Source: Promethearchaeota archaeon
GTDB lineage: Archaea; Asgardarchaeota; Hermodarchaeia; Hermodarchaeales; Hermodarchaeaceae
Direction of reading: 5' to 3'
DNA: 32,000 nucleotides
Assembly (NCBI GenBank): GCA_048939625.1
Contig: JBHLPH010000010.1
Coordinates: forward strand, 1,714-33,713
Shown piece by piece: positions 1,860-31,224 of the stretch; within the stretch, counting starts at the first letter, position 1, and each line of letters begins with the position of its first letter. A program made the position numbers and the translations under genes. The notes beneath the pieces were generated by a model. That model had not been told where the DNA came from, ran no database searches, and saw only the letters and a list, made by a program, of their open reading frames with translations.

Positions 1860-1924
1860 CCACTCCTCTCTCTGGCTTTAACCGTTTGCCCTTGCCCGCC
1901 TCAGAGGATACAACAAGGAGCAAT

Positions 1925-1934
1925 CCTTAAAAGT
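1925..1934. promoter_or_regulatory. Putative TATA-like element (ccttaaaagt) in the divergent region between the epimerase and uS19
   Basis: This is the only A/T-rich box in the 126-nt divergent intergenic region, ~52 nt upstream of the uS19 ATG. Its reverse complement (acttttaagg) could serve the minus-strand gene. Confidence 0.3.
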
Positions 1935-1985
1935 AGGTGACTGTACCCAACAGCTGTACCCCACAACACCATTCGGGTCATCATC

Positions 1986-2390
1986 ATGGTCAAGAAATTC
2001 ACCTACCGCGGATTCGGATTAGAAGAACTCCAACGCATGCCTATGGACCAGTTCATCAACCTACTCCCCGCCCGCCAACGCCGCAGCCTCCGCCGCGGCC
2101 TCCCACCCCGTCAAAAGAAACTCCTCGAACGCCTCCGCAAAACCCGCCAAGCCATCGGCAAAGGCAAATCCCCCATGATCCGCACCCACAACCGCGACAT
2201 GATCATCCTCCCCGAAATGGTCGGCCTCACCCTCGGCATCCACAACGGCAAAGAATTCCTCCCCCTCGACATCAAAGTCGAACACATCGGCCACTACCTC
2301 GGCGAATACGCCCCCACCAACAAAGCCGTCCGCCACGGCAACCCCGGAATCGGCGCAACACGCGGAAGCCAATATGTACCTCTCAAGTAA
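1986..2390 (+). CDS. rps19: 30S ribosomal protein uS19
   Basis: The 134-aa translation ([18 protein letters not shown]...[17 protein letters not shown]...HNGKEF...[10 protein letters not shown]) is typical of archaeal/eukaryotic-type S19/S15. Third codon positions are almost exclusively C or A. Confidence 0.95.
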
Positions 2391-2426
2391 TATATAGATT
2401 AAGTAAAATCTATATAGATATGTTTT
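2391..2426 (+). terminator. Perfect 10-bp inverted repeat (tatatagatt / aatctatata, 6-nt loop) plus a TTTT run immediately after the uS19 stop. It may be a terminator hairpin or paired TATA-like boxes.
   Basis: Positions 2391-2400 pair base for base with 2407-2416 and the loop is aagtaa. A tttt run lies at 2423-2426. The stem is 9 A:T pairs and 1 G:C pair, so it is weak as RNA. Confidence 0.4.
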
Positions 2427-2478
2427 CAAGGAATTGTGGGGTTTAAGTACCTCCTTTTAATGCGCCTATTGATGTGCT

Positions 2479-4338
2479 ATGGGAAGACAACACCTACGTC
2501 ACTTCCACCTTACTGATTTCCACACACGCGACATATATGTTCAACTTGACCCAGATTTTGGCAAAAGCTTCTTTTCAAAAATACTTGATCAAATCTCCTT
2601 GAAAACTCTCGCTGAGGAACTCGACTCCAAAATCGACCTTTTAGCTCGATACGCTGTGAACTATCGTGAGGATTTAGTGAATCCCGTTTTCATCGAACTT
2701 GGCGTTTTATTGAAGCTTATTAGTACCCACAAGAAATTTCATAGGAATTCAGATATTCTTTCAGATGTGGAAAGAAATGTTCGCGCAATTAAAGGGTACG
2801 GAAGGTCAGGGCTGCTACGAAATCCACGAATACCAATTAAAGAAGATAACCATCTTGTTCGATTGGTGGTTCATCTAATAGGAGACGGCACCTTAACAGA
2901 GGAATATGGAACAACTAAGACTCCACACTACACAAATGGAAATGCAGTGTTACTTAATCAGTTTCATAGCACTTTGGGACAGGTATTTGGAGATGTTACT
3001 TGTTGTACTCGGAAATATATTGACAGACATGGAAAATCCCGTTCATATGTTGCTTTCACAAAATGGCTCGGTTATCTTCTCCGCCATTGGTATCCAGACG
3101 CAGGATTTGATGAACTACATGGTTCTCTTCCCAGTGCATTTCTACAACTTCCTTTAGAACTAAAGCGCGAAATTGTTCAGACGTTTGGGGATGATGATGG
3201 GCATGTGGGAGCACATTCTATTCGGTTTACGTCGGGGGGTTCAACGATTCTTGAGCAGATTCGTAGTTTAATTGTGGAGTTGATGGTGGCGACGTTACCT
3301 GTGGAGGAGTTTCAGGTTCTGTTGAAGTCCGTGGGTGAGGTGAAGGCGTGTCGGAGTTGGTTTATTTTGGACGTGTATCGACCGGTGTTTGGGTGGTATG
3401 TGGAGCATATTGGGTTCTCGCATCCGGAGCGGGCTGAGAGGTTGCGGTTTCAGTTAGCTTGTGATAGCGCGTGGGTGGAACGGGGGTTGGATGGGTTTGA
3501 TTTGGATTTTCTCACCTTGATTGGGTTGCGAGAGGTTGGGTCGGTGGCGGATGTAGCGCGGCGTTTTGTGTTGCGTGAGGATTTTCTGTTTCGGGTGGTT
3601 GAGCGGTTGCGGCAGTTGGGGTGGATTCGGCGGATGACAAAGCAGAAGTTTACAACGGTGTATCAGACGACATCAAAAGGCGAGGATTTCTTAAGGCGGA
3701 TTTGGGCTCGTGGGTGGTGTGAGCCAGATCGGGTCGTGATGGATGATGCGTGGTGGTCTGAGTTGCGGGGGCAGTTGTTGGATGAGTATGGCACCGCTGC
3801 AGCAGTGGCGCGGGTGGCGGGGATGCCGGAGACGACGGTGCGGCTGTATTTGCAGGGGCGGCGGCAGTGGATGGATGCGCGATGGGTAGTGGCGTTAGCG
3901 AAGGCGGTGGGGTGGGGGGTGGATGCGGTGTCGAAGGGACTTGTCGTGGGGTTTACACGGAAGTTGGCCCCGCGGTATGAGCAATGTGATTTCTTGAAAA
4001 AGCAATTGGAAGTGTATCGGCAGTTAAGCGATGGACGCCTTGGGTTTGAGGGTTGGCTGTTGAGTCATCGACGAGATGGAGGGCGATCGGAGCAGCTGTT
4101 AGATGTGGGACATTCGGTGAAGCTGCAAACGGCGTCGGCGATCAGAAATCGAATCGTTGAATTGGCTAGAGTGAATGGGGGAACGATTGCTTTGGAAGCG
4201 TTGAAGGGTGATGCCGTGTTGCAGGAGTTAGTTGCGAATCGGTATGCGGCGTATTTGGCGGATCGGATGGCGAAGCTGATTAAGCAGGGGGTGTTTGTGC
4301 GTGTGCAGAAGGGACGGTATCAGTTGGTTGAGTTCTGA
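2479..4338 (+). CDS. Free-standing double-motif LAGLIDADG homing-endonuclease-like protein fused to multiple HTH/winged-helix modules
   Basis: 619-aa ORF. Motif 1 is LVRLVVHLIGDGTL (aa 126-139, nt 2854-2895). Motif 2 is IVQTFGDDDGHV (aa 232-243, nt 3172-3207). They lie ~100 aa apart, as in monomeric LAGLIDADG enzymes, and the acidic residues are retained. The C-terminal 370 aa contain HTH-like segments (VADVARRFVLREDFLFRVVERLRQLGWIRR; AAAVARVAGMPETTVRLYLQGRR; RNRIVELARVNGGTIALEAL...LIKQGVFVRVQKGRYQL). A long ORF on a G/T-rich strand is unlikely by chance, because stop codons are frequent in that composition. Confidence 0.7.
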   Translation: MGRQHLRHFHLTDFHTRDIYVQLDPDFGKSFFSKILDQISLKTLAEELDSKIDLLARYAVNYREDLVNPVFIELGVLLKLISTHKKFHRNSDILSDVERNVRAIKGYGRSGLLRNPRIPIKEDNHLVRLVVHLIGDGTLTEEYGTTKTPHYTNGNAVLLNQFHSTLGQVFGDVTCCTRKYIDRHGKSRSYVAFTKWLGYLLRHWYPDAGFDELHGSLPSAFLQLPLELKREIVQTFGDDDGHVGAHSIRFTSGGSTILEQIRSLIVELMVATLPVEEFQVLLKSVGEVKACRSWFILDVYRPVFGWYVEHIGFSHPERAERLRFQLACDSAWVERGLDGFDLDFLTLIGLREVGSVADVARRFVLREDFLFRVVERLRQLGWIRRMTKQKFTTVYQTTSKGEDFLRRIWARGWCEPDRVVMDDAWWSELRGQLLDEYGTAAAVARVAGMPETTVRLYLQGRRQWMDARWVVALAKAVGWGVDAVSKGLVVGFTRKLAPRYEQCDFLKKQLEVYRQLSDGRLGFEGWLLSHRRDGGRSEQLLDVGHSVKLQTASAIRNRIVELARVNGGTIALEALKGDAVLQELVANRYAAYLADRMAKLIKQGVFVRVQKGRYQLVEF

Positions 4339-4379
4339 GTTCATGGGAGTGGTGTGGGGTGAATTGGTCGAAGTGGCTG

Positions 4380-6371
4380 TTATGCTTTGAAGGTTGGGGT
4401 AGGTGAGGTTTCGTTGAACAGGATTTCACCAAGGGGGGTGAAGTCGGTGAGGTTGTGGAAGCGGAGTGTGGAGGGGGAGAGGGTATAGAGGACTTCGTTG
4501 ATGTAAAGGGAACGGGTGATGAAGTGTGATTGCCATTTGTAAATGTCATCGTGGAGGACGTCGGGATCGGCGAGGTGGGTAATTTGATGTCGGATGGTAA
4601 GGGTGGCGGTTGCGGGGTTGAGGTAGAAGATGTAGGCGCCTTGCCAGACGTAGTCGCCATGTTCAAAGGGTTCGTGGGTGTAGTTGTCGGTGTATTCTGC
4701 GAGTAGAACGGGAATGATGAGGAGCTGTTGGTCGGGATGGTAGAGGACAGCGTGATGGTCGTTGAGGGCGGGGGAGTCAGTGCCTCGTACGCCAAGAATT
4801 AACTTTGCATTTTCTTTGGGGGTGTAGGGGTCGGTGGCATTGAATAGGCTGAGTTTGAGTCCCTCATACCACCACCAGTCTTCTGCTTCAGAAACCTGGA
4901 CCTCTTTTCCGATGCCTACTAACTGGTTGTCACCCAGTGGGTGGAGGTAATTCGAGTAACCGGGAATTATCAATTCTCCTTGAAGGTGGGGTGTAGTGGG
5001 ATCAGAAAGATCAATGATAAAGAGGGGATCGGTTTTCCAGAAGGTCACTAGATAACATACGCTTTCTAGGAATCGAACAGAGTAGATGCTTTCGCCAGGG
5101 GCTAAGCCTTCGAGAAGCCCAACGGTGTCGAGTTGTGCGTTTAGAATATAGAGATTGCTATCTTGTGTCCAGGAGGTTACAAATAACATTGGTGTCGACG
5201 TGAAGTTGGCGATTCGCCGTGTTGTAGCTACGCGTAGATAGCCCTCATGTTCATCGAGGGCGAATTGGTTAATTAGTAAGCCTGGAACTTTTCCACTGGC
5301 TTCATATAATACCTGACCTTCACAGATCGCAAAGCGATGTATGGCTGTTGAATGGTGAGATATGGCGTTAGTACTGAAGTCGAAATGCGATATAGCAAGG
5401 TAGAGATTGACAAGTGATGCGTAGATCGTACAGGTGCCCGTTCCGCCCAGGAAGGTTTCACTGGTGGGAGGATTATCCGGATTGCTGATATCTTGGGCTA
5501 GAATATGATAGTAGCAGAATCTGTAATCATACGTGTACAGATCATAATAGATGGTTTCAGCTGGGATGATGTGTGTGGAGTTTCCTATTGTTATTGATGG
5601 TAGCTCGACGGTTCCATTCTCCTCGCTTATCCAGTCTTGGACGATGAGGTATAGATATTTGCCAATTAGGCGGGCACTGACATAGTAATTCTCAAGGTCG
5701 ATTCGTTGAAGTAAGGTAATGGATGAAGGTTGAGATACATCATAAACTTGAAGTGAAATTGTGTCGGGGCTCCATGGGTCTCCGTGGTGCGTGACTCGGC
5801 TAATCACGGCTAGCCTGGATGTATCCCATAAGAATAACGCAAGCGGTGTTCCCTCAGGGTAAATCCAATTGACTATGTTCGCCATAGCCACAGGGTATGC
5901 TTTAACAACTGCAACCTTCTCTTCAGTAATGGTGTAAATGTAAGTTCCGTCGGTTTTGACAATGTCGGGCTCATCAACGCCTTCAACTTGAACATTGGTG
6001 GTCGAATACCCTGATGTCCCCTGCAATCCACTAGGAGTATCTCCGGACGTAAACAAGTTGATATCTTCCAGCCACAATCCCCATCCATAGCCTTGCGGTG
6101 GGTGATGATTTTGCACATACAATGCCAATTCCGCTTGTGATCGAAAACGCTGTAGTTGAACGGGGGAATTAAGTTGAAAATCCAAATAAAGGCCTGCTAT
6201 GGCGAACCCACCGATGATCGTTGATAATAAAAGCACGACTTTTACTGGTTGGCTTCGGACTTGTCTTAACCAATTACTCCCAAATCGGGTCCTTATGTGA
6301 GGCATATACTTACCTCTTACCCTCTGGGTCATTAATCTAAACTTTAGAACAGGAAAATCCATTGTGTTCAA
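4380..6371 (-). CDS. N-terminally membrane-anchored beta-propeller domain protein (COG4880 / Beta_propel-like)
   Basis: 663-aa ORF with one TM helix (VKVVLLLSTIIGGFAIAGLYL). The hallmark stretch YSTTNVQVEGVDEPDIVKTDGTYIYTI resembles the family of secreted archaeal/bacterial beta-propeller proteins as I remember it. The start codon is uncertain (Met at codons 1, 4, 14 and 23). Confidence 0.6.
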   Translation of the reverse strand: MNTMDFPVLKFRLMTQRVRGKYMPHIRTRFGSNWLRQVRSQPVKVVLLLSTIIGGFAIAGLYLDFQLNSPVQLQRFRSQAELALYVQNHHPPQGYGWGLWLEDINLFTSGDTPSGLQGTSGYSTTNVQVEGVDEPDIVKTDGTYIYTITEEKVAVVKAYPVAMANIVNWIYPEGTPLALFLWDTSRLAVISRVTHHGDPWSPDTISLQVYDVSQPSSITLLQRIDLENYYVSARLIGKYLYLIVQDWISEENGTVELPSITIGNSTHIIPAETIYYDLYTYDYRFCYYHILAQDISNPDNPPTSETFLGGTGTCTIYASLVNLYLAISHFDFSTNAISHHSTAIHRFAICEGQVLYEASGKVPGLLINQFALDEHEGYLRVATTRRIANFTSTPMLFVTSWTQDSNLYILNAQLDTVGLLEGLAPGESIYSVRFLESVCYLVTFWKTDPLFIIDLSDPTTPHLQGELIIPGYSNYLHPLGDNQLVGIGKEVQVSEAEDWWWYEGLKLSLFNATDPYTPKENAKLILGVRGTDSPALNDHHAVLYHPDQQLLIIPVLLAEYTDNYTHEPFEHGDYVWQGAYIFYLNPATATLTIRHQITHLADPDVLHDDIYKWQSHFITRSLYINEVLYTLSPSTLRFHNLTDFTPLGEILFNETSPTPTFKA

Positions 6372-6427
6372 TGCTTTTGAACAACTTCAGACTTCTCAGA
6401 CGCTATTGATCGGCTCTGAAAGAGCTA

Positions 6428-6439
6428 CTTTTAATAAGG
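6428..6439 (+). promoter_or_regulatory. Putative TATA box (cttttaataagg) for the Trm112-like gene
   Basis: A/T-rich box ~45 nt upstream of GTG 6479, in the divergent intergenic region shared with the beta-propeller gene. Confidence 0.35.
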
Positions 6440-6478
6440 GCAGTTAGCGTAGACAGGTTGCGTGTTGAGGTGTTTATT

Positions 6479-6976
6479 GTGAAGCCGTGGTTGTTGAATA
6501 TTTTGGCGTGTCCGATTTGTAAGGAGCATCCGTTGACGACGTATGTGGTGGGTGTGAAGCGGAATCGGCTTCGGGACAAGAAGGGATTAGCCGGAGAACT
6601 GGTCATCCATTATCAGCGCGGAGTGCTGAGTGAACCGTCTTTGAAGCCGGTCTATAATTTGTCAAAGGACAAAGTCTTTGATCAGCGGCTGGCAAAGGCG
6701 CGGAAGGTGTTTGCCTCCTTTTCGAAGAAAAAGCCTGATTCCCAGGATGTGGTACCTCTCGTGGAGTACTTCCATGGCATCGAAATTGTAACGGGAGCGA
6801 TGCGGTGTGAGAAGTGTGAAAGATGGTACCCGATTGGGTCCCGCGTGGAGACGATTCCGGAGCTGTTGCCGGATGCGGGGCGAGATAGGAAGGCGGATGT
6901 GGCGTTTCTCCAGAAGCATCGTGAAGTGCTTCCGAAAGTGATTTTAACCGAGTCTAAGCCCTTCGTCTTGGAATAG
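6479..6976 (+). CDS. Trm112-like zinc-ribbon protein, long form with a central insertion and a C-terminal extension
   Basis: The N-terminal half-knuckle is MKPWLLNILACPICKE. The C-terminal half is EIVTGAMRCEKCERWYPIGSRVETIPELLPD (CPxC ... CxxC, and the (h)PI..GIP.hL motif of Trm112/DUF343). About 95 aa separate the two halves. GTG 6479 is preceded by GAGGTG at 6467-6472; the ORF track begins at TTG 6458. Confidence 0.6.
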   Translation: MKPWLLNILACPICKEHPLTTYVVGVKRNRLRDKKGLAGELVIHYQRGVLSEPSLKPVYNLSKDKVFDQRLAKARKVFASFSKKKPDSQDVVPLVEYFHGIEIVTGAMRCEKCERWYPIGSRVETIPELLPDAGRDRKADVAFLQKHREVLPKVILTESKPFVLE

Positions 6977-7004
6977 GACGACATCGAAGCCGAGACTAGC
7001 AGAA

Positions 7005-7016
7005 TTCTTATATAGG
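7005..7016 (+). promoter_or_regulatory. Putative TATA box (ttcttatatagg) that would re-start transcription of the r-protein cluster at uL22
   Basis: This is the best TATA-like box in the 168-nt spacer between the Trm112-like gene and uL22. It would imply a ~100-nt leader. Confidence 0.3.
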
Positions 7017-7144
7017 GCACATGGCATCGCTTCATCGCTCTCACGTTGTTTGGGAGTGCGGACCAGCACCGAGGGTCACATGATTCTCGTTCTTGCTGCT
7101 GCAACCTGCAAAGTGAGTGTTGTAATTCCCAGAGTGGATACCTT

Positions 7145-7606
7145 ATGCCCAACTATGGTTACTCGATTATTGGTCTAGATCCAGACAAAACCGCACGAGC
7201 TAGTGGACGCGAGCTTCGGATGTCACCAAAGGCAGCCCGGGAAATTTGTAATGAATTGCGTGGGCTCCGCTTAGAAGCTGCGAAAACCTACCTCGAGGAG
7301 GTTATTGCCATGCGTCAAGCCGTCCCCTATCGACGCCATGACAAGAAAGTCGGGCACAGGAAAGGGCTACATAAGGCCGATTCTGGACGGTACCCCGTGA
7401 AAGCCTCGAAAGAGATTATGCGGATCTTAACCAATGCTGAAAACAATGCGGATTACAAGGGCCTAGACCTTGATCGACTCCGAGTAACCCATATTTCAGC
7501 GTATCCTGGGAGAGTTCTCAAACGTTTTATAGAACGAGCCCATGGACGCTCCACCAAATTCGATGAACAACTGGTACATGTTGAGGTTGTATTAACGGAG
7601 GAGTAA
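7145..7606 (+). CDS. rpl22: 50S ribosomal protein uL22
   Basis: MPNYGYSIIGLDPDKTARASGRELRMSPKAAREICNELRG... is typical of archaeal L22. ATG 7145 is preferred over the ORF-track start at 7046, whose extra 33 aa are Cys/Ser-rich and unlike L22. Confidence 0.93.
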   Translation: MPNYGYSIIGLDPDKTARASGRELRMSPKAAREICNELRGLRLEAAKTYLEEVIAMRQAVPYRRHDKKVGHRKGLHKADSGRYPVKASKEIMRILTNAENNADYKGLDLDRLRVTHISAYPGRVLKRFIERAHGRSTKFDEQLVHVEVVLTEE

Positions 7607-7608
7607 AA

Positions 7609-8787
7609 ATGCCAGCTGAAGATCATTTTATCAATCGTGGATTGCTCAAAGTCAAAGTAAATGACTTTTTACGCCAGGAACTTCGCCGTGCCGGCTATGC
7701 TGGCGTAGATCTCCAAAAGACTCCACTGGGGATGCGCGTTGTTGTCTATGCATCACGCCCAGGAATGGTCATTGGCCGTCGTGGAACCACAGTCCGTGAA
7801 CTAACGGAAACCTTAGAGCACGAATTTGGCTTAGAAGCTCCACAGATTGAAGTTAGCGAAGTGGAAGTCCCCGAACTCAACGGACCCATCATGGCTGAAC
7901 GATTAGCCCAGCGACTTGAACGCGGTGACCATTTCCGTCGTGCTGCCTATGGGGTGCTTCGCCGCATCATCAGTGCTGGAGCGAAAGGCGTGGAAATCTC
8001 CCTTTCTGGGAAACTGACCAGCCGCCGTGCACGATATCAAAAATTCCGAAGTGGATTCGTAGCCAAAACTGGTGAACCAATCCGCACTGCTGTGAGTCAC
8101 GGTTGGGCTTTTGCGATTATGAAACCTGGTGTCTTGGGGGTACAAGTTCGAATTATGCTCCCCGACGCCGTAGCACCGGATCACCCTGTCATTGTAGAGC
8201 GAGAGGTAGTAGTTGAAGCTGTTCCAACGCCTACTCCAACAACCACAGAACCCTCTGAAACCCCTGAAGCTGCGGATATTGAAATTATTGAAGAAGAGCT
8301 ACCTATCGAGGAAGCTTCATCAATAGAAGAGTTTGTTGACGAAAGCACTGAACCAGTCCCCGAACCAACTCCTGCACCTACTCCAGAATCAGTTCCGAAA
8401 GAAGTTCCTTCCGAAGAGGAAAAACCTGCTCCTGAAGAACCGAAGGCGAAGCCCAAGGCCAAATCCAAAGAGGAACCTGAAAAAGCCCCAGAGAAACCGA
8501 AGGCGAAGCCCAAGGCAAAGAAGAAAGAAGTAGAAAAAGCGAAGCCGAAGGCGAAGAAGGAAAAAGCCGAGACGAAGCCTAAGGCGAAACCGAAGGCGAA
8601 GAAAAAGGCTGAACCCAAAGAAAAGGCAAAGAAAGAGAAAAAAGCCGAATCTAAGGCAGCCAAGAAAGAAGAAAAACCAAAAGCGAAAGCCATGACCAGC
8701 AAAGCTGCTGAGAAGGAAAAGAAGTCGAAATCCAAGGAAACCAAAGCAAAGGCTTCAAAATCCAAGAAGGAGTCTTCGAAGAAGTGA
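7609..8787 (+). CDS. rps3: 30S ribosomal protein uS3 with a ~190-aa C-terminal acidic-then-lysine-rich low-complexity extension
   Basis: The KH-domain core is aa 1-195 (GMRVVVYASRPGMVIGRRGTTVRELTE...). From about nt 8206 the tail runs PTPTPTTTEPSE...EEELPIEE..., then KPKAKPKAK repeats. GGAGGAG lies upstream of the ATG. Confidence 0.95.
   Translation: MPAEDHFINRGLLKVKVNDFLRQELRRAGYAGVDLQKTPLGMRVVVYASRPGMVIGRRGTTVRELTETLEHEFGLEAPQIEVSEVEVPELNGPIMAERLAQRLERGDHFRRAAYGVLRRIISAGAKGVEISLSGKLTSRRARYQKFRSGFVAKTGEPIRTAVSHGWAFAIMKPGVLGVQVRIMLPDAVAPDHPVIVEREVVVEAVPTPTPTTTEPSETPEAADIEIIEEELPIEEASSIEEFVDESTEPVPEPTPAPTPESVPKEVPSEEEKPAPEEPKAKPKAKSKEEPEKAPEKPKAKPKAKKKEVEKAKPKAKKEKAETKPKAKPKAKKKAEPKEKAKKEKKAESKAAKKEEKPKAKAMTSKAAEKEKKSKSKETKAKASKSKKESSKK
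8438..8516 (+). repeat. Perfect 22-nt direct repeat (aaccgaaggcgaagcccaaggc) at 8438-8459 and 8495-8516, with a 57-nt period, inside the uS3 tail
   Basis: Read directly from the sequence. It encodes the recurring EPKAKPKAK / KPKAKPKAK unit, and a degenerate third copy lies near 8569-8607. Confidence 0.9.
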
Positions 8788-15756: not shown

Positions 15757-16296
15757 ATGGCTGAAGATGACGATCGCCGAAAGCGCAAACGCTGGTGGGA
15801 CGATGAATCCACCGATGCTCAATTCGAAGCTCTTCAACGCATGTTCGAAGAAATCATGAAAATGTTCTCTGATGTAAATCCTGAAGACATGTTTGGACCC
15901 GATGCCCAACATCAGCTTGAAGAGATTATGAAACAATTGGAAAAGAACCCCATGGTATGGGGCTTTTCTGCTGGCATCGGCCCAGACGGCAAGATGCGCT
16001 TAAATCCCTTTGGCAACTTAAAACCCGAAGGTGCTCCTCCTGCCGTTCGCTCTGAACGCGAACCCCTCATTGATGTCCAGGAACAAGAAGACAGCATCAT
16101 AATCATCGCCGAACTTCCTGGCGTCAAACATGATGAAATCAATATCAAAGTAACAGATTATGCGGTAACTCTTCAGGTTGAATCCAAGGATCGGAAATAT
16201 GCGAAAAACATCGATCTTCCAGCTCCAATTGATATCGACCAAGTTACCTCGAATTATAACAACGGCATCCTTGAAATTCAACTTCAAAAACGGTGA
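15757..16296 (+). CDS. Hsp20/alpha-crystallin family small heat-shock protein (archaeal type), embedded in the r-protein operon
   Basis: 179 aa. The C-terminal alpha-crystallin-like core is PLIDVQEQEDSIIIIAELPGVKHDEINIKVTDYAVTLQVE...NIDLPAPIDIDQVTSNYNNGILEIQLQK. The N-terminal half is highly charged. It starts 32 nt after uL30 with an AGGAAGGA SD, and its stop lies 1-7 nt before the uL15 start. Confidence 0.8.
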   Translation: MAEDDDRRKRKRWWDDESTDAQFEALQRMFEEIMKMFSDVNPEDMFGPDAQHQLEEIMKQLEKNPMVWGFSAGIGPDGKMRLNPFGNLKPEGAPPAVRSEREPLIDVQEQEDSIIIIAELPGVKHDEINIKVTDYAVTLQVESKDRKYAKNIDLPAPIDIDQVTSNYNNGILEIQLQKR

Positions 16297-21984: not shown

Positions 21985-22100
21985 TGGCGCCGCGGACGAG
22001 ATTCGAACTCGTGCGACCCGAGAGTCACAGGCTATATGAGCATCGCCAAATTAGTGACGAGATTCCAGGCCTGCGCCGTAAACCACTTGGCTACCGCGGC
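21985..22100 (-). tRNA. tRNA-Ser (anticodon GGA), class II with a long variable arm, an encoded CCA and a 29-nt anticodon-loop intron
   Basis: The minus-strand read is GCCGCGG-TA-GCCA-AGTGGTTTA-CGGC-G-CAGGC-CTGGAA[29 nt]A-GCCTG-TGACTCTCGGGTCGC-ACGAG-TTCGAAT-CTCGT-CCGCGGC-G-CCA. It has a 7-bp acceptor stem, a canonical T arm, discriminator G73, a 15-nt variable arm (GACT/GGTC stem), and the anticodon at 22064-22066. The mature length is 87 nt. Confidence 0.85.
22034..22062 (-). other. Intron of tRNA-Ser(GGA), with boundaries assuming the canonical 37/38 position
   Basis: 36 nt lie between the anticodon-stem strands where 7 are expected. Excising TCTCGTCACTAATTTGGCGATGCTCATAT leaves the loop CUGGAAA. 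The exact boundaries are not confirmed because I could not fold a strict BHB. Confidence 0.5.
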
Positions 22101-27365: not shown

Positions 27366-28304
27366 ATGGGTAAAGGCTCAGGCTTTGGTAAAACAATTCT
27401 TTTTGGTGAACACTTCGTTGTTTATGGATTTCCCGCGATCGCAGCGGCAATCGGATCCACAACGACCGCGATTGTACGAAGAACACCCGAGCCAGGATGG
27501 TCATTAAAGGATAATCGTCCTGCAGTTCCTGGGTATAAGAAAAAGAAAAAAGATGAACAAAAGGCGTCCATTGAGAATATTCTTCGGTTCGCTGACATCA
27601 ATCTCGATGAAGCAGGGATTACAATCACCTTAGGCGGAAAATTAGTTTGTGCGAGTGGCATTGGAGCAAGTGCGGCTAGCTGTACAGCTATTGCCCGTGC
27701 ACTCAACGATGAATTTCGCTTAGGCTGGGATGACAACCAAGTAAATGCTTGTGCTTTTGAAGGCGAAAAAGGCTATCACGGAACCCCAAGTGGTATCGAT
27801 AATACAGCAGCCACCTTTGGCGGCATTGTTTGGTATAAACGCGATCCCAGTGGTGGTGCTCCAACAATTGAGACCATCAAAATGAAAGCACCGACCGACA
27901 TCGTAATTGCTAGCACTGGGATCACGGCTAGTACTAAGGAAGTAGTTGCAGATGTCCGCCAAATGAAAGACGAGAAAGGTAACTGGTTTAATCAAATCAC
28001 CGAGGACTATCTTGACATTGTAAACACAGCTAGACAAGCCCTAATTGATAATGACCTCCAGCTTGTTGGTCTGTTGATGAACCAGAACCATAATCTTCTC
28101 ATTGAAATTGGAGTCTCGTGCGTGGAATTAGAGGAGCTTGTGGGTGTGTCCCGTCAAGCAGGAGCATGGGGCGCAAAATTGACGGGAACAGGGCGGGGAG
28201 GAAATATGGTTGCTTTAACCCCAGGTCGAGAGTTGCAAAACAACATCTTTGGCGCAGTCAAACAACGTGGGTTCTCGGCTTGGCGGTACCAGATTGGCGT
28301 ATAA
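27366..28304 (+). CDS. mvk: Mevalonate kinase (GHMP kinase)
   Basis: 312 aa: GKTILFGEHFVVYGFPAIAAAI and GHMP motif II, GGKLVCASGIGASAASCTA. GGAGG lies upstream. Confidence 0.88.
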   Translation: MGKGSGFGKTILFGEHFVVYGFPAIAAAIGSTTTAIVRRTPEPGWSLKDNRPAVPGYKKKKKDEQKASIENILRFADINLDEAGITITLGGKLVCASGIGASAASCTAIARALNDEFRLGWDDNQVNACAFEGEKGYHGTPSGIDNTAATFGGIVWYKRDPSGGAPTIETIKMKAPTDIVIASTGITASTKEVVADVRQMKDEKGNWFNQITEDYLDIVNTARQALIDNDLQLVGLLMNQNHNLLIEIGVSCVELEELVGVSRQAGAWGAKLTGTGRGGNMVALTPGRELQNNIFGAVKQRGFSAWRYQIGV

Positions 28305-28325
28305 AAAATTATGAGGTGAAAGGTA

Positions 28326-29633
28326 ATGGGTTTACGTGACCATTTAGCGAAACTTGACAAAGAAGGCACCCTTCTTAAAATAGCTAAACCGGTGTCTAAA
28401 CGCCTTGAAGCCAGTGGTATTCTCAAGGCGGTAGAACCTCGACCGGTTCTCTTTGAAAATGTCAAAGATTCAGATTACCGGATAATGGGAAACCTGTTTT
28501 GTAGTAAAGAAAGTGTAGCTAACTATCTAGGAATTTCAACCAACGAGATAATTCCTACCCTAAGCAAAGCCATTGAAGAGCGGTCAGTTCCTGAAGAAAT
28601 TCAAGATGCTCCCTGCCAAGAGGTCGTTGAAACGGATGTTGACCTTGATAAAATTCCTATCATCTTTCATAACGAACGTGATGGGGGACCTTATATCTCT
28701 TCAGCTGTCGTCGTCGTTACTCATCCTAAATTTGGTCAGAATCTTGACTTCCATCGTGCAATGCAAATCAAAAAAGATATGATGAGCACTCGGGTCGTTG
28801 CCAAACGCAATTTTCATACATTCTTAGAAGACATTGGCGAAGTCAATGTCGCCTTTTGTATTGGCAATGCACCAAACGTTCTTGTTGCTGCGGCCACAAG
28901 TGTAGAAATCGGAATAAATGAATTAGAAATCGCAAATGCCCTTGAACCAATACGCGTTGTCAAGGCTAAGACCTCTGATTTACTCATACCGGCTGATTGC
29001 GAGTGGGTAATTGAGGGCAAGGTGTATCGGGATAAACGTCATGACGAAGGACCTTTCATTGATTTAACTGAGACTTATGATGTAATCCGTAACGAGCCGA
29101 TATTCGAAGTCAGCTGTATCACGCATCGAAAGGACGCAATCTGGCAGGCCCTTCTCCCTGGTGCTTTTGAACATAAACTACTCATGGGCATGCCCCGAGA
29201 GCCAACAATCTTCCGAAAAATCAACGAGAAAGGGGTTCGTTGTCTTGACGTGAATATCAACCCAGGTGGTTGCAGCTGGCTACACGCCATCGTGAAAATT
29301 GACAAACAGCGAGAAGAGGATGGCAAATTAGCAATTCAAGGCGCATTCGAAGGACATACCAGCTGTAAACATGTGTTCGTCGTTGACAAAGACATTGACA
29401 TCTATGATCCCTTCGATGTTGAATGGGCGATGGCAACCCGATTCCAAGGCGATGTCGATATGGTGGTTAAAGACAAAGAACGAGGAAGTAGTTTGGATCC
29501 GAGTGCAGAACCTGGCACCTATCTGACTACTAAGATCGGGTTTGACCTGACTCATCCTTTGAAGACTGAAGGTAAAAACTTCGCTAAAGCTAGTTTTCCA
29601 AAAGTAGACCTCTCCAAATTCCTGAGGGAGTGA
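28326..29633 (+). CDS. UbiD-family (prenyl-FMN-dependent) decarboxylase, a candidate trans-anhydromevalonate-5-phosphate decarboxylase
   Basis: 435 aa. The N-terminus is UbiD-like (LRDHLAKLDKEGTLLKIAKPVSKRLEASGILKA...). The function is inferred from its position between mvk and the aconitase-X genes. Confidence 0.7.
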   Translation: MGLRDHLAKLDKEGTLLKIAKPVSKRLEASGILKAVEPRPVLFENVKDSDYRIMGNLFCSKESVANYLGISTNEIIPTLSKAIEERSVPEEIQDAPCQEVVETDVDLDKIPIIFHNERDGGPYISSAVVVVTHPKFGQNLDFHRAMQIKKDMMSTRVVAKRNFHTFLEDIGEVNVAFCIGNAPNVLVAAATSVEIGINELEIANALEPIRVVKAKTSDLLIPADCEWVIEGKVYRDKRHDEGPFIDLTETYDVIRNEPIFEVSCITHRKDAIWQALLPGAFEHKLLMGMPREPTIFRKINEKGVRCLDVNINPGGCSWLHAIVKIDKQREEDGKLAIQGAFEGHTSCKHVFVVDKDIDIYDPFDVEWAMATRFQGDVDMVVKDKERGSSLDPSAEPGTYLTTKIGFDLTHPLKTEGKNFAKASFPKVDLSKFLRE

Positions 29634-29641
29634 AAGATAGA

Positions 29642-30832
29642 ATGAAGTTATCTACCCTGCAAATGGAGATGCTCAATGGAAAGCATGGGCTTGCGAGCCA
29701 AAAGAGCATGGAAATCCTCAATGCACTTGGCGAAATTTTTGGTGCCAAGACGATGGTGCCTGTTACCTCCGTTCAAATTGCTGGCGTCAGTTATGCAAAT
29801 CTCGGCGAGCCAGGTCTCGATTGGCTTGCGCAGATGGCGGAAGATGGACGGGTTCGTGTACTAACCACTCTAAATCCGGCAGGTATGGACTTGGAGAACT
29901 GGAAGGTCTTAGGTATTGATCCTGAATTTGCGAAAAACCAGGAACGTGTTGTCAACGCTTTTGCCAAGATGGGTATCATTACAACATGTACATGTACACC
30001 CTATTTAGTGGGCAATCTTCCTCATTTTGGTGAACACATTGCTTGGGCTGAGAGTAGTGCAGTTTGTTTTGCCAATTCAGTAATTGGCGCAAAAACAAAT
30101 CGTGAAGGTGGACCTAGCGCCTTAGCTGCGGCGCTCACTGGGTACACTCCGAAGTATGGGTATCACTTAGAAGAAAATCGTCACGCTCATATTAGCTTCA
30201 AGATTGAACCTAAAATCGAAGGCACCGCCCAGTTTGGTACACTAGGAAAGGCTATTGGAGATATCTTAGATTCAAAAACTGAATGGACAATTCCTTACAT
30301 TACTGGAATTCCCTCCGCGAATACGGATGAGCTTAAATCCTTCTGTGCTTCAATTGCAACATATGGGGGGACTGCCCTCTTCCATATGGAGGGCTTGACA
30401 CCGAATAAAACCAAAACACCAAAAGAAACCATCACCATCACAGCTGCTCAGTTAAAGGATGCAGAAGAGGAACTCAACGAGGCTGATGCAGCAATTGATT
30501 TTGTAAGTATTGGCTGTCCTCATGCCTCATTACGCGAAATTCGGTATATCGCTGAACTGGTTGAGAGCAAACAAGTGAAGAAGGAAACTTGGATTACTAC
30601 TGCGCGCCCTACCAAACAAGTTGCTGACCGTATGGGCTATACCCAAATCATTGAAGCCGCTGGCATCAAATTTGCTTGCGATACATGTTGTGTTGTAGCT
30701 CCAATTAAGGGACGGTTCACCGGGTTATGTACCGATTCAGCGAAAGGTTGCTACTATGGCCGTGGACGCAATAAATTCCAGACCAAACATTGTACCCTGG
30801 AAGAATGTATCGAGGAGGCGTTAACGGAATGA
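29642..30832 (+). CDS. Aconitase X catalytic subunit (DUF521), a candidate phosphomevalonate dehydratase large subunit
   Basis: 396 aa from ATG 29642 (MKLSTLQMEMLNGKHGLASQKSMEIL...), with Cys-containing segments (ITTCTCTPYLVG, SIGCPHAS, FACDTCCVVAP). An alternative GTG at 29630 overlaps the upstream stop. Confidence 0.75.
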   Translation: MKLSTLQMEMLNGKHGLASQKSMEILNALGEIFGAKTMVPVTSVQIAGVSYANLGEPGLDWLAQMAEDGRVRVLTTLNPAGMDLENWKVLGIDPEFAKNQERVVNAFAKMGIITTCTCTPYLVGNLPHFGEHIAWAESSAVCFANSVIGAKTNREGGPSALAAALTGYTPKYGYHLEENRHAHISFKIEPKIEGTAQFGTLGKAIGDILDSKTEWTIPYITGIPSANTDELKSFCASIATYGGTALFHMEGLTPNKTKTPKETITITAAQLKDAEEELNEADAAIDFVSIGCPHASLREIRYIAELVESKQVKKETWITTARPTKQVADRMGYTQIIEAAGIKFACDTCCVVAPIKGRFTGLCTDSAKGCYYGRGRNKFQTKHCTLEECIEEALTE

Positions 30833-31224
30833 CCATGAAATTCGAGGGTCGAAAAATATCTCCTGGCAAAGCAAGCGGGGAAGCCTTAGTCACCACTCAA
30901 GGCATCTCCTTCTACGGCGGAGTTGACCCAGAAACCGGAGTTGTCGTTGAAAAAGACCATGAGCTAGAAGGTCAATCCATCACAGGCAAGGTTCTCATCT
31001 TTCCCAGCGGAAAAGGATCAACTGTTGGATCCTATGTACTCTACCAATTAGCAAAGACCGGTAAGGGACCCGTAGCCATTATTAACCAAGAAACCGAAAC
31101 TATTGTAGCTGTTGGCTGTATTATCAGTGAGATACCTGCAATCGATAAAATCCCAATCAACAAAATCTCAACGGGTCAACAACTTCGCGTTGATGCGACG
31201 AACGGATTGGTCGAAGTCATCTAA
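30829..31224 (+). CDS. Aconitase X swivel-domain subunit (DUF126), a candidate phosphomevalonate dehydratase small subunit
   Basis: 131 aa: MTMKFEGRKISPGKASGEALVTTQGISFYGGVDPETG...VLIFPSGKGSTVGSYVLYQL. It has an ATGA overlap with the large subunit and GAGGAGG at 30812-30818. Confidence 0.75.
   Translation: MTMKFEGRKISPGKASGEALVTTQGISFYGGVDPETGVVVEKDHELEGQSITGKVLIFPSGKGSTVGSYVLYQLAKTGKGPVAIINQETETIVAVGCIISEIPAIDKIPINKISTGQQLRVDATNGLVEVI

Follow-up and report, generated by a model that had tools for sequence, protein, structure and literature searches.

In the 32,000-nucleotide stretch of archaeal DNA analyzed here (the window; positions 1,714 to 33,713 of contig JBHLPH010000010.1, assembly GCA_048939625.1), the genes for ribosomal proteins uS19 and uL22 are 4.75 kb apart and are separated by three open reading frames (ORFs). 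These encode a 619-residue protein that we call p619 (+ strand), a membrane-anchored beta-propeller protein (- strand) and a long form of Trm112 (+ strand). We conclude that the gap is probably an old, vertically inherited arrangement of separately promoted units in the Hermodarchaeia and that p619, an apparent member of the LAGLIDADG endonuclease superfamily, has probably been retained by the host. The source belongs to the Hermodarchaeia, a group of Asgard archaea; its own records carry the name Promethearchaeota, and its closest species representatives are named Hermodarchaeota or Hermodarchaeia. An earlier reading of the sequence alone had placed three unrelated genes between uS19 and uL22, and this part of it stands, as the ORFs are where it put them and the Pfam identities agree. 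The features of the region are the following.

885 to 1859, - strand: NAD-dependent epimerase gene (Pfam Epimerase, E 7.8e-63), the left neighbor of uS19 in place of uL2.
1925 to 1934, + strand: TATA-like box 'CTTAAAAG', a putative promoter element of a separate uS19 unit, about 50 nt before the ATG and followed by a C-rich 5' leader; present in 11 Hermodarchaeia loci.
1986 to 2390, + strand: uS19 gene, 134 aa (Pfam Ribosomal_S19, E 2.5e-29), with 79-94% identity in Hermodarchaeia species representatives.
2391 to 2416, no strand assigned: perfect 10-bp inverted repeat right after the uS19 stop codon, with a T4 run at 2423-2426; a candidate terminator.
2442 to 2449, + strand: TATA-like box 'GGGGTTTAAGTACCTCC' for p619, conserved with locus L090; it would imply a near-leaderless mRNA.
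2479 to 4338, + strand: p619, 619 aa, with an N-terminal Cro-like helix-turn-helix (HTH), a double-motif LAGLIDADG core, a winged HTH, an XRE-type HTH and a C-terminal winged helix.
2776 to 3378, + strand: LAGLIDADG core of p619, about aa 100-300, with motif 1 HLIGDG (D136, codon 2884-2886) and motif 2 FGDDDG (D240, codon 3196-3198).
4330 to 6418, no strand assigned: lineage-specific replaced segment, consisting of the beta-propeller gene and its flanks, as delimited by blastn against locus L095.
4380 to 6371, - strand: membrane-anchored beta-propeller protein (PF09826), 663 aa (Pfam Beta_propel, E 5e-133, profile positions 1-494 of 495).
6429 to 6436, + strand: TATA box of the Trm112 unit, within 'AAAGAGCTACTTTTAATAAGGGC', which is conserved in L090, L091, L095, L096, L006 and L012; it lies about 25 nt before the start, and a leaderless mRNA is predicted.
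6458 to 6976, + strand: long-form Trm112, 172 aa (Pfam and NCBIfam), with a Zn knuckle split by a helical insert and a C-terminal extension; the exact start codon is uncertain.
7008 to 7015, + strand: TATA box of the uL22 operon, within conserved 'CAGAATTCTTATATAGGG', near-invariant in nine Hermodarchaeia loci.
7035 to 7101, + strand: two-hairpin 5' leader of the uL22 operon, with arms 7035-7045/7051-7061 and 7064-7074/7091-7101.
7145 to 7606, + strand: uL22 (Pfam Ribosomal_L22), 153 aa in all related loci, the first gene of the uL22-uS3-uL29-Rpp29-uS17-uL14... operon.

The arrangement is shared by the Hermodarchaeia. Homologs of p619 at 50-75% identity were traced to their own contigs and the gene orders compared (individual loci are given here as L numbers). 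In 13 distinct Hermodarchaeia loci p619 directly follows uS19, and the order p619, one minus-strand gene, Trm112, uL22 and uS3 is found in all nine of the distinct loci that extend far enough. The distance by which uS19 is detached from uL22 ranges from 2.5 to 4.8 kb. The presence of this order in species with such divergent p619 proteins leaves practically no chance that the arrangement is an assembly chimera joined at about 2400 or 7000. Furthermore, p619 occurs at 100% identity, with the same neighbors and the same junctions, in two NCBI metagenome-assembled genomes from different projects and in three Logan assemblies made from separate runs; identical junctions in five independent assemblies exclude such a join.

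The gene in the middle slot varies. In six loci (L006, L013, L014, L015, L095 and L096) it is a YdjM-like membrane-protein gene (PF04307), which gene callers partly missed, and in L091 it is a different ORF. The beta-propeller gene occupies the slot only in the window, L090, L010 and L012, and only in the window and L090 is p619 alongside it. When the window was compared by blastn with L095, which has a p619 with 71% identity, only 1916-4329 and 6419-7290 aligned; L095 has a 626-bp YdjM-like segment where the window has the swapped segment 4330-6418. No remnants of a beta-propeller gene were found in the loci that lack this gene. These sequence comparisons point to a local swap in which the beta-propeller gene took the place of a YdjM-like gene that would be ancestral.

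The sequence-only reading had raised the possibility that the whole 4.7-kb block (p619, the beta-propeller gene and Trm112) is, or once was, a single mobile cassette set into an invariant junction. An endonuclease-like gene at one edge would suit such a cassette, and an insertion is implied relative to the gene order of the Loki, Thor, Odin and Heimdall genomes described below. However, the three genes differ in phyletic range and in history: adjacency of Trm112 extends across the Hermodarchaeia and no further, p619 reaches a lineage that NCBI names Heimdallarchaeota, and the middle gene was swapped independently of the other two. A search for direct or inverted repeats at the boundaries gave only short chance matches, so that no boundary is marked and terminal repeats are missing. 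In addition, each gene has a conserved putative promoter of its own, and the three-gene block was never found at another locus. The occurrence of p619 and Trm112 at this position in every far-reaching Hermodarchaeia locus likewise speaks largely for fixed, non-mobile synteny. A single cassette is thus very improbable. The 4.7 kb consists of three genes of different ages, each predicted to be transcribed independently, and the arrangement is ordinary lineage-specific operon remodeling, neither currently nor recently mobile as one cassette.

The junction between uS19 and uL22 had been taken as normally invariant in archaea, which is not the case among the relatives of this organism. One genome per GTDB species was scanned with uS19 and the best 80 loci were kept; six of these are from Hermodarchaeia and 74 from other groups, and 66 of the latter are informative. 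Direct adjacency, with uL22 immediately downstream of uS19, occurs in just six of the 66 (Hodarchaeota, Desulfurococcaceae and a few others). Two more have uL22 downstream at a gap of 1-2 kb, seven have it on the opposite strand (Methanomethylicia, Culexarchaeia), and in 51, mostly Bathyarchaeia, no uL22 lies within at least 3 kb of uS19. In the Bathyarchaeia uL3-uL4-uL2-uS19 closes the cluster, which was confirmed for L025, and uS19 is an orphan on both sides in the Freyarchaeia and Jordarchaeia loci. Breaks between uS19 and uL22 are common in Freyarchaeia, Jordarchaeia, Bathyarchaeia and Methanomethylicia.

The window also departs from the textbook order on the other side of uS19. The earlier reading treated uS19 as part of an L2-S19-L22 string; upstream there is no uL2 but an NAD-epimerase gene on the minus strand, together with a dTMP-kinase-like gene, and uS19 is an orphan on both sides in the window. 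The epimerase neighbor is common to L007, L009, L011-L015 and L095, and it is found upstream wherever the contig reaches that far. Homology of the window DNA to L095 and L012 begins at about 1915, near the TATA-like box of uS19. The canonical contiguous uL2-uS19-uL22-uS3 string (S10-spc order) was found neither in the window nor in any Hermodarchaeia locus. On the 3' side of uL22 the usual archaeal string follows (uS3, uL29, Rpp29, uS17, uL14, uL24, eS4, uL5) and continues to SecY, Adk, Cmk, Cbf5, uS13, uS4, uS11, RpoD, eL18, uL13, uS9 and uS2.

In complete Loki, Thor, Odin and Heimdall genomes the string uS19-uL22-uS3... is contiguous and uL3-uL4-uL23-uL2 is located elsewhere (Tirumalai et al. 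2023, PMC10833476); the Hermodarchaeia are outside the scope of that survey. The break between uL2 and uS19 is therefore an already known Asgard trait (PMC10833476), and the window resembles the surveyed clusters in keeping uL3-uL4-uL23-uL2 apart from the big cluster and in having an HSP20 gene between uL30 and uL15. The HSP20 gene is at 15757-16296 in the spc-type cluster of the window and is also present in L009/L013; its insertion has been reported for the Thor and Odin genomes (PMC10833476). The detachment of uS19 from uL22, in contrast, sets the Hermodarchaeia apart from the four surveyed lineages. This break is derived in the Hermodarchaeia, though it is one of many such breaks, and because other Asgard lineages keep uS19 and uL22 together, genes must have been inserted here at some past point.

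Which protein came to lie next to uS19 was not apparent from direct searches. Against Pfam, NCBIfam and PDB sequences, p619 gave only a weak HTH_31 match, with no LAGLIDADG Pfam match even at E<=10, and its identification required structure prediction and an enlarged family profile. The AlphaFold2 (AF2) model of p619 has a predicted local distance difference test (pLDDT) score of 73. Foldseek matched this model to LAGLIDADG endonucleases of both intein and free-standing types, namely 2cw7 (PI-PkoII, E 2e-5), 7qsu, 6x1j and 5a0m, as well as to WhiA (8dy9_I, 392 columns, E 0.16), XRE-type HTH and winged-helix domains. An exhaustive hidden Markov model search over 1.84 billion cluster representatives found 482 relatives, most of them 370-500 aa in length, which cover p619 residues 1-330 and then have an ArsR/MarR-type winged HTH. 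Among 65 sampled relatives, 42 match Pfam LAGLIDADG_3 (PF14528) and just two match LAGLIDADG_WhiA, weakly; p619 has no WhiA Pfam match. The family profile in turn matches PI-PfuI (E 1e-12), PI-PkoII and the Tli VMA intein endonuclease.

The catalytic motifs are strongly conserved. In the profile alignment HLiGDG pairs with LIADG and FfDDEG with FDAEG of the intein endonucleases, so that the acidic residues align. In 21 p619 orthologs G135/D136/G137 (HLIGDG) and G237-G241 are invariant, as is D240 in the alignment, and the second invariant motif, FGDDDGHVG, spans G237 to G244. Across the 65 family representatives, which share about 20% identity, D136, G137, D238 and D239 are invariant and position 240 is D or E. 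Taken together, the AF2/Foldseek results, the family profile and the LAGLIDADG_3 matches bear out the earlier assignment of p619 as a LAGLIDADG protein with multiple HTH domains, and they indicate that it is a member of the LAGLIDADG endonuclease superfamily of the LAGLIDADG_3 type. The family itself is a large uncharacterized archaeal group in which the LAGLIDADG_3 domain is preceded by an HTH at the N-terminus and followed by a winged HTH. We predict that p619 most likely recognizes a long DNA site through its LAGLIDADG saddle and HTH modules, with metal bound at D136/D240, and its motifs suggest that it may cleave a DNA target. An origin of p619 as an intein in situ was considered and rejected, as there is no Hint domain and there are no splice-junction residues.

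Several known systems resemble p619 in part. The best profile and fold matches are the archaeal intein endonucleases (PI-PfuI 1dq3, PI-PkoII 2cw7, Tli/Pho VMA), but p619 has no Hint/splicing domain, no extein and no intein signature, and it has HTH domains instead. WhiA/DUF199 is like p619 in that a double-motif LAGLIDADG scaffold is fused to HTH modules, including one at the C-terminus, and in being chromosomally fixed and vertically inherited. However, WhiA is a bacterial sporulation/cell-division regulator whose catalytic residues, acidic as well as basic, have been lost and which is unable to cleave DNA (PMC3384342), whereas the archaeal p619 has an extra N-terminal HTH and three C-terminal HTH/winged-helix modules, and its family keeps both acidic residues. 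The yeast HO endonuclease is a domesticated, catalytically active LAGLIDADG protein of the intein type whose added domain is a zinc finger and whose target is MAT (PMC3384342, PMC7282813). HO and p619 have in common the intein-type core, added DNA-binding domains, residence in the host and a retained active site, but their lineages are unrelated and HO has a zinc finger where p619 has HTH modules. Finally, free-standing homing endonucleases of the T4 seg/mob type are, like p619, encoded between conserved genes and missing from close relatives. They differ in belonging to the GIY-YIG/HNH families, in being phage-borne and in having patchy, incongruent phylogenies, whereas the divergence of p619 agrees with that of host markers and searches of mobile elements did not find it.

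The congruence with host markers was examined in eight taxa that carry all of the genes compared, using pairwise identities of p619 and of uL22+uS3. The p619 identities cluster as the uL22+uS3 identities do (Spearman 0.68), although with saturated synonymous divergence (dS) and only eight taxa, fine-scale transfer could escape the comparison. Within this limited resolution, p619 does not have the host-incongruent phylogeny expected of horizontal spread. The ratio of nonsynonymous to synonymous divergence (dN/dS) is about 0.20 for p619, 0.05-0.10 for Trm112 and 0.02-0.05 for uL22 and uS3. A tblastn search of phage and plasmid collections with p619 gave no match, a scan of viral contigs with a p619 relative, P0039, found no relative, and PHROGs and PADLOC gave no meaningful match for either protein.

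The nearest outgroup of p619 is P0029, a 629-aa protein with 34% identity and the same architecture. Homologs of this type are present in three contigs of the lineage that NCBI names Heimdallarchaeota, in which the ribosomal proteins are 43-65% identical to those of the window. The gene order there is the uL22 operon (-), GlmS (-), a PIG-P-like gene (-), uS19 (+), a 72-aa winged-HTH gene (-) and the p619 homolog (+), with no Trm112. Since these contigs keep the p619 homolog after uS19 while the uL22 operon is on the other strand, the conserved pair is uS19 and p619, not p619 and uL22. In one of the Heimdall-named loci (L109, 8938-15917) the uS19-linked homolog is followed by a second, tandem LAGLIDADG_3 paralog of 526 aa and then by genes for an HTH protein of 1042 aa and a DEAD/MZB helicase, an arrangement that has the look of a variable region, perhaps one concerned with defence. 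Other members of the family are at unrelated, locally stable loci; for example, P0039 is located between Dus/RNase HII and AlaX in 14 contigs. The distant relative P0028 was tried as a marker of the same locus and rejected because its context is unrelated and methanogen-like.

An alternative to retention by the host is that p619 remains a selfish gene for a free-standing homing endonuclease of the LAGLIDADG type, with its target in or beside the highly conserved uS19. Recurrent homing within populations would then hold p619 downstream of uS19, the first invasion would have broken the uS19-uL22 pair, and lineages that escaped would have let p619 decay. The catalytic residues, intact in all 21 orthologs and 65 family representatives, are what such a gene should have, and its closest solved relatives are true homing endonucleases. 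It keeps to uS19, itself a highly conserved gene, in two distant Asgard lineages that otherwise have different neighbors, has a patchy distribution across Asgard archaea, and is precisely absent, with decayed remnants, from L010 and L012. The position of other family members next to conserved housekeeping genes, such as that of P0039, and the tandem paralog in L109 can be read in the same way. Nevertheless, the divergence of p619 follows that of the ribosomal proteins with no sign of transfer, and an identity of 34% between the two lineages is in keeping with vertical divergence of ancient date. The extra HTH domains, about 300 aa, are strongly conserved, with full-length conservation in more than 25 sequences; p619 has a stable putative promoter, it stands free beside uS19 with no intron or intein context, and no copies were found on viruses or plasmids. 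The likeness to a free-standing homing endonuclease seen in the sequence-only reading, whether for the present p619 or for a past state of it, draws support from the catalytic residues, the decayed copies and the patchy range; the congruence with the host and the lack of copies on mobile elements speak against it. We consider continued homing unlikely, and we favor retention by the host because of the fixed position throughout the clade, the congruent divergence, the purifying selection on the extra HTH region, the apparent promoter of its own and the absence from mobile elements.

The two decayed copies deserve description. Two of the six Hermodarchaeia species representatives, L010 and L012, have no intact p619. 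In L012, uS19 is followed by 382 bp with a weak N-terminal remnant of p619 and by the beta-propeller gene; beyond this gene are a 5' pseudo-fragment of Trm112, an inserted beta-lactamase-family gene and, at the contig end, an intact Trm112 start. In L010, uS19 is followed by 94 bp, the beta-propeller gene, what is left, with a frameshift, of roughly the last 45 codons of p619, and then unrelated genes. The remnants at these loci indicate loss and are no evidence of naive empty sites, and the decay means that p619 is dispensable. The remnants are at 2800-2935 in L010 and at 3547-3928, 5980-6054 and 7548-7643 in L012, and the beta-lactamase-family insertion in L012 comes with a duplicated Trm112 promoter and 5' end. 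These remnants point to repeated recombination at the locus.

Besides the limited power of the congruence comparison, several observations weigh against an old, vertically inherited arrangement with a host-retained p619. The L010 remnant is on the far side of the beta-propeller gene, and we could not account for its position by a single event. The losses in L010 and L012 resemble the decay phase of the homing-endonuclease cycle, and the family-wide invariance of both catalytic acidic residues, which WhiA has lost (PMC3384342), would fit an active endonuclease. The uS19-linked subfamily is patchy in Asgard archaea, being absent from the Freyarchaeia, Jordarchaeia and Hodarchaeota loci examined, and the Loki, Thor and Odin clusters are reported to be contiguous (PMC10833476).

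With these reservations, the arrangement that we favor would work as follows. uS19 would be a stand-alone gene with its own TATA box, and its transcript would end near the A/T-rich hairpin and T-run past the stop codon. p619 would be a resident protein with an intein-type LAGLIDADG core flanked by four HTH/winged-helix modules, tied to the downstream side of uS19 since before the Hermodarchaeia split from the Heimdall-named lineage. Presumably it is a sequence-specific DNA-binding protein with a long site that still coordinates metal in the LAGLIDADG active site, and it could serve the host that retained it as a site-specific nuclease/nickase or a regulator that acts at or close to the uS19 locus, much like HO or like a WhiA that has kept its active site. 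The convergent minus-strand slot would hold a membrane-protein gene, YdjM-like ancestrally and replaced here by the beta-propeller gene. Trm112, of the eukaryote-type long form, would be driven from its own promoter, and the uL22 operon would restart at a conserved TATA box followed by a structured leader specific to the Hermodarchaeia.

The signals on which this scheme depends are conserved to different degrees. Of the palindrome and T-run that had been pointed out after uS19, the palindrome is perfect (arms 2391-2400/2407-2416) and would form a hairpin of -8 kcal/mol (z -2.1), whereas the T-run is only T4. The palindrome sequence is common to L090, L006 has a hairpin at the same position, and in L013 and L014 T6 runs take its place. 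The palindrome is a plausible signal for the 3' end of uS19. A/T boxes are found 25-40 nt before the p619 start in other Hermodarchaeia loci. The TATA-like box that had been noticed before uL22 is real, as its conservation at 7008-7015 attests, and it is a likely promoter element. A sigma-70/terminator scan, which is not applicable to archaea, stayed at background level.

The uL22 leader is about 105 nt long. In its two hairpins 89% of the cells are paired, as compared with 41-54% when the partners are slid, and compensatory changes occur at five pairs, a modest covariation support from nine sequences. With a covariance model the leader was found nowhere but ahead of uL22 in Hermodarchaeia loci, and no Rfam family matches it. 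It would suit an operon 5' end that arose anew once uS19 had been separated, and it may be a ribosomal-protein autoregulatory site. In L096 about 270 nt of extra GC-rich, structured-looking sequence (3234-3505) lie between Trm112 and the uL22 promoter; they have no Rfam match.

The identification of the third gene as a long Trm112-like protein is upheld by Pfam, NCBIfam and fold. Trm112 proteins (COG2835) typically bind class I methyltransferases (Mtq2, Trm11, Trm9 and Bud23) and activate them. The Pfam Trm112p match is split, with residues 11-126 covering a 40-position profile, and hence about 80 aa are inserted. The cysteines (CPxC...CxxC) form a split Zn knuckle with an inserted helical domain. 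The best PDB sequence match is E. cuniculi Trm112 (3q87), over the full length. The AF2 model (pLDDT 83) has eukaryotic Trm112/TRMT112 proteins as all of its top 18 PDB fold matches, and it matches the human, yeast and microsporidian proteins over 112-149 columns. It therefore resembles the eukaryotic proteins in its Zn knuckle and inserted helical domain and differs from them in being archaeal and in having a C-terminal extension of about 30 aa. The helical domain of Trm112 has been described as eukaryote-specific, and the archaeal Trm112 that has been studied, from Haloferax, lacks it (PMC6144793). Long forms (165-200 aa) are present in the Hermodarchaeia and, at 33-39% identity, in many Bathyarchaeia. 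The one Bathyarchaeia long Trm112 whose context was examined is not next to uL22, and so an adjacency of Trm112 and uL22 older than the Hermodarchaeia is, from this one context, not supported.

The composition of the region is unusual. From 1986 to 5600 in the window, GC skew at third codon positions reaches extreme values and switches sign: codons ending in C are strongly preferred in uS19 (-0.8) and codons ending in G in the C-terminal half of p619 (+0.8). The beta-propeller and YdjM-like genes, on the minus strand, favor codons ending in C. As a consequence of these preferences, the + strand is rich in G from about 3.2 to 5.6 kb, even though the genes there point in opposite directions. L095 and L014 have this pattern as well; it is weak in L006 and absent in the Heimdall-named L100. 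The skew gives rise to many spurious long ORFs in alternative frames, and gene callers get uS19 and the YdjM-like gene wrong. A replication origin at the skew switch near 2.6 kb was considered and set aside: the skew is local and sits at third positions, and no Orc/Cdc6 gene or origin recognition box (ORB) repeats were seen.

Other features are located downstream. The uS3 protein (7609-8787) has 392 aa, of which about 190 at the C-terminus form a tail with abundant K, E, P and A; its relatives have 330-390 aa. Between Cbf5 and uS13, at 21988-22100 on the - strand, Rfam detects a 113-nt tRNA (48 bits) that ARAGORN does not report and that probably contains an intron. After uS2, genes for a GHMP kinase, a UbiD-family protein and the AcnX large and small subunits occupy 27366-31224, a set consistent with the archaeal variant of the mevalonate pathway.

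For annotation, the break between uS19 and uL22 in the Hermodarchaeia is best treated as a stable lineage marker and not as an island or a misassembly. Operon maps in textbooks make this junction look far more fixed than it is in Asgard and TACK archaea. The helical domain of Trm112 in Hermodarchaeia and Bathyarchaeia bears on the Asgard-eukaryote link, and the structured uL22 leader bears on ribosome regulation. The 482 cluster representatives related to p619 make up a large unannotated archaeal family that keeps the endonuclease active site, and they provide a test case for the recruitment of homing endonucleases, or for their persistence on chromosomes. We suggest, quite tentatively, that they are an undescribed class of archaeal host proteins, that is, intein-derived LAGLIDADG endonucleases that were domesticated with their active site and armed with four HTH modules; one subfamily would have been locked to uS19 since early in Asgard evolution and may have caused repeated uS19/uL22 rearrangements. 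If this is true, the uS19-locked p619 could be a site-specific nuclease/nickase or a regulator at a ribosomal-protein locus.

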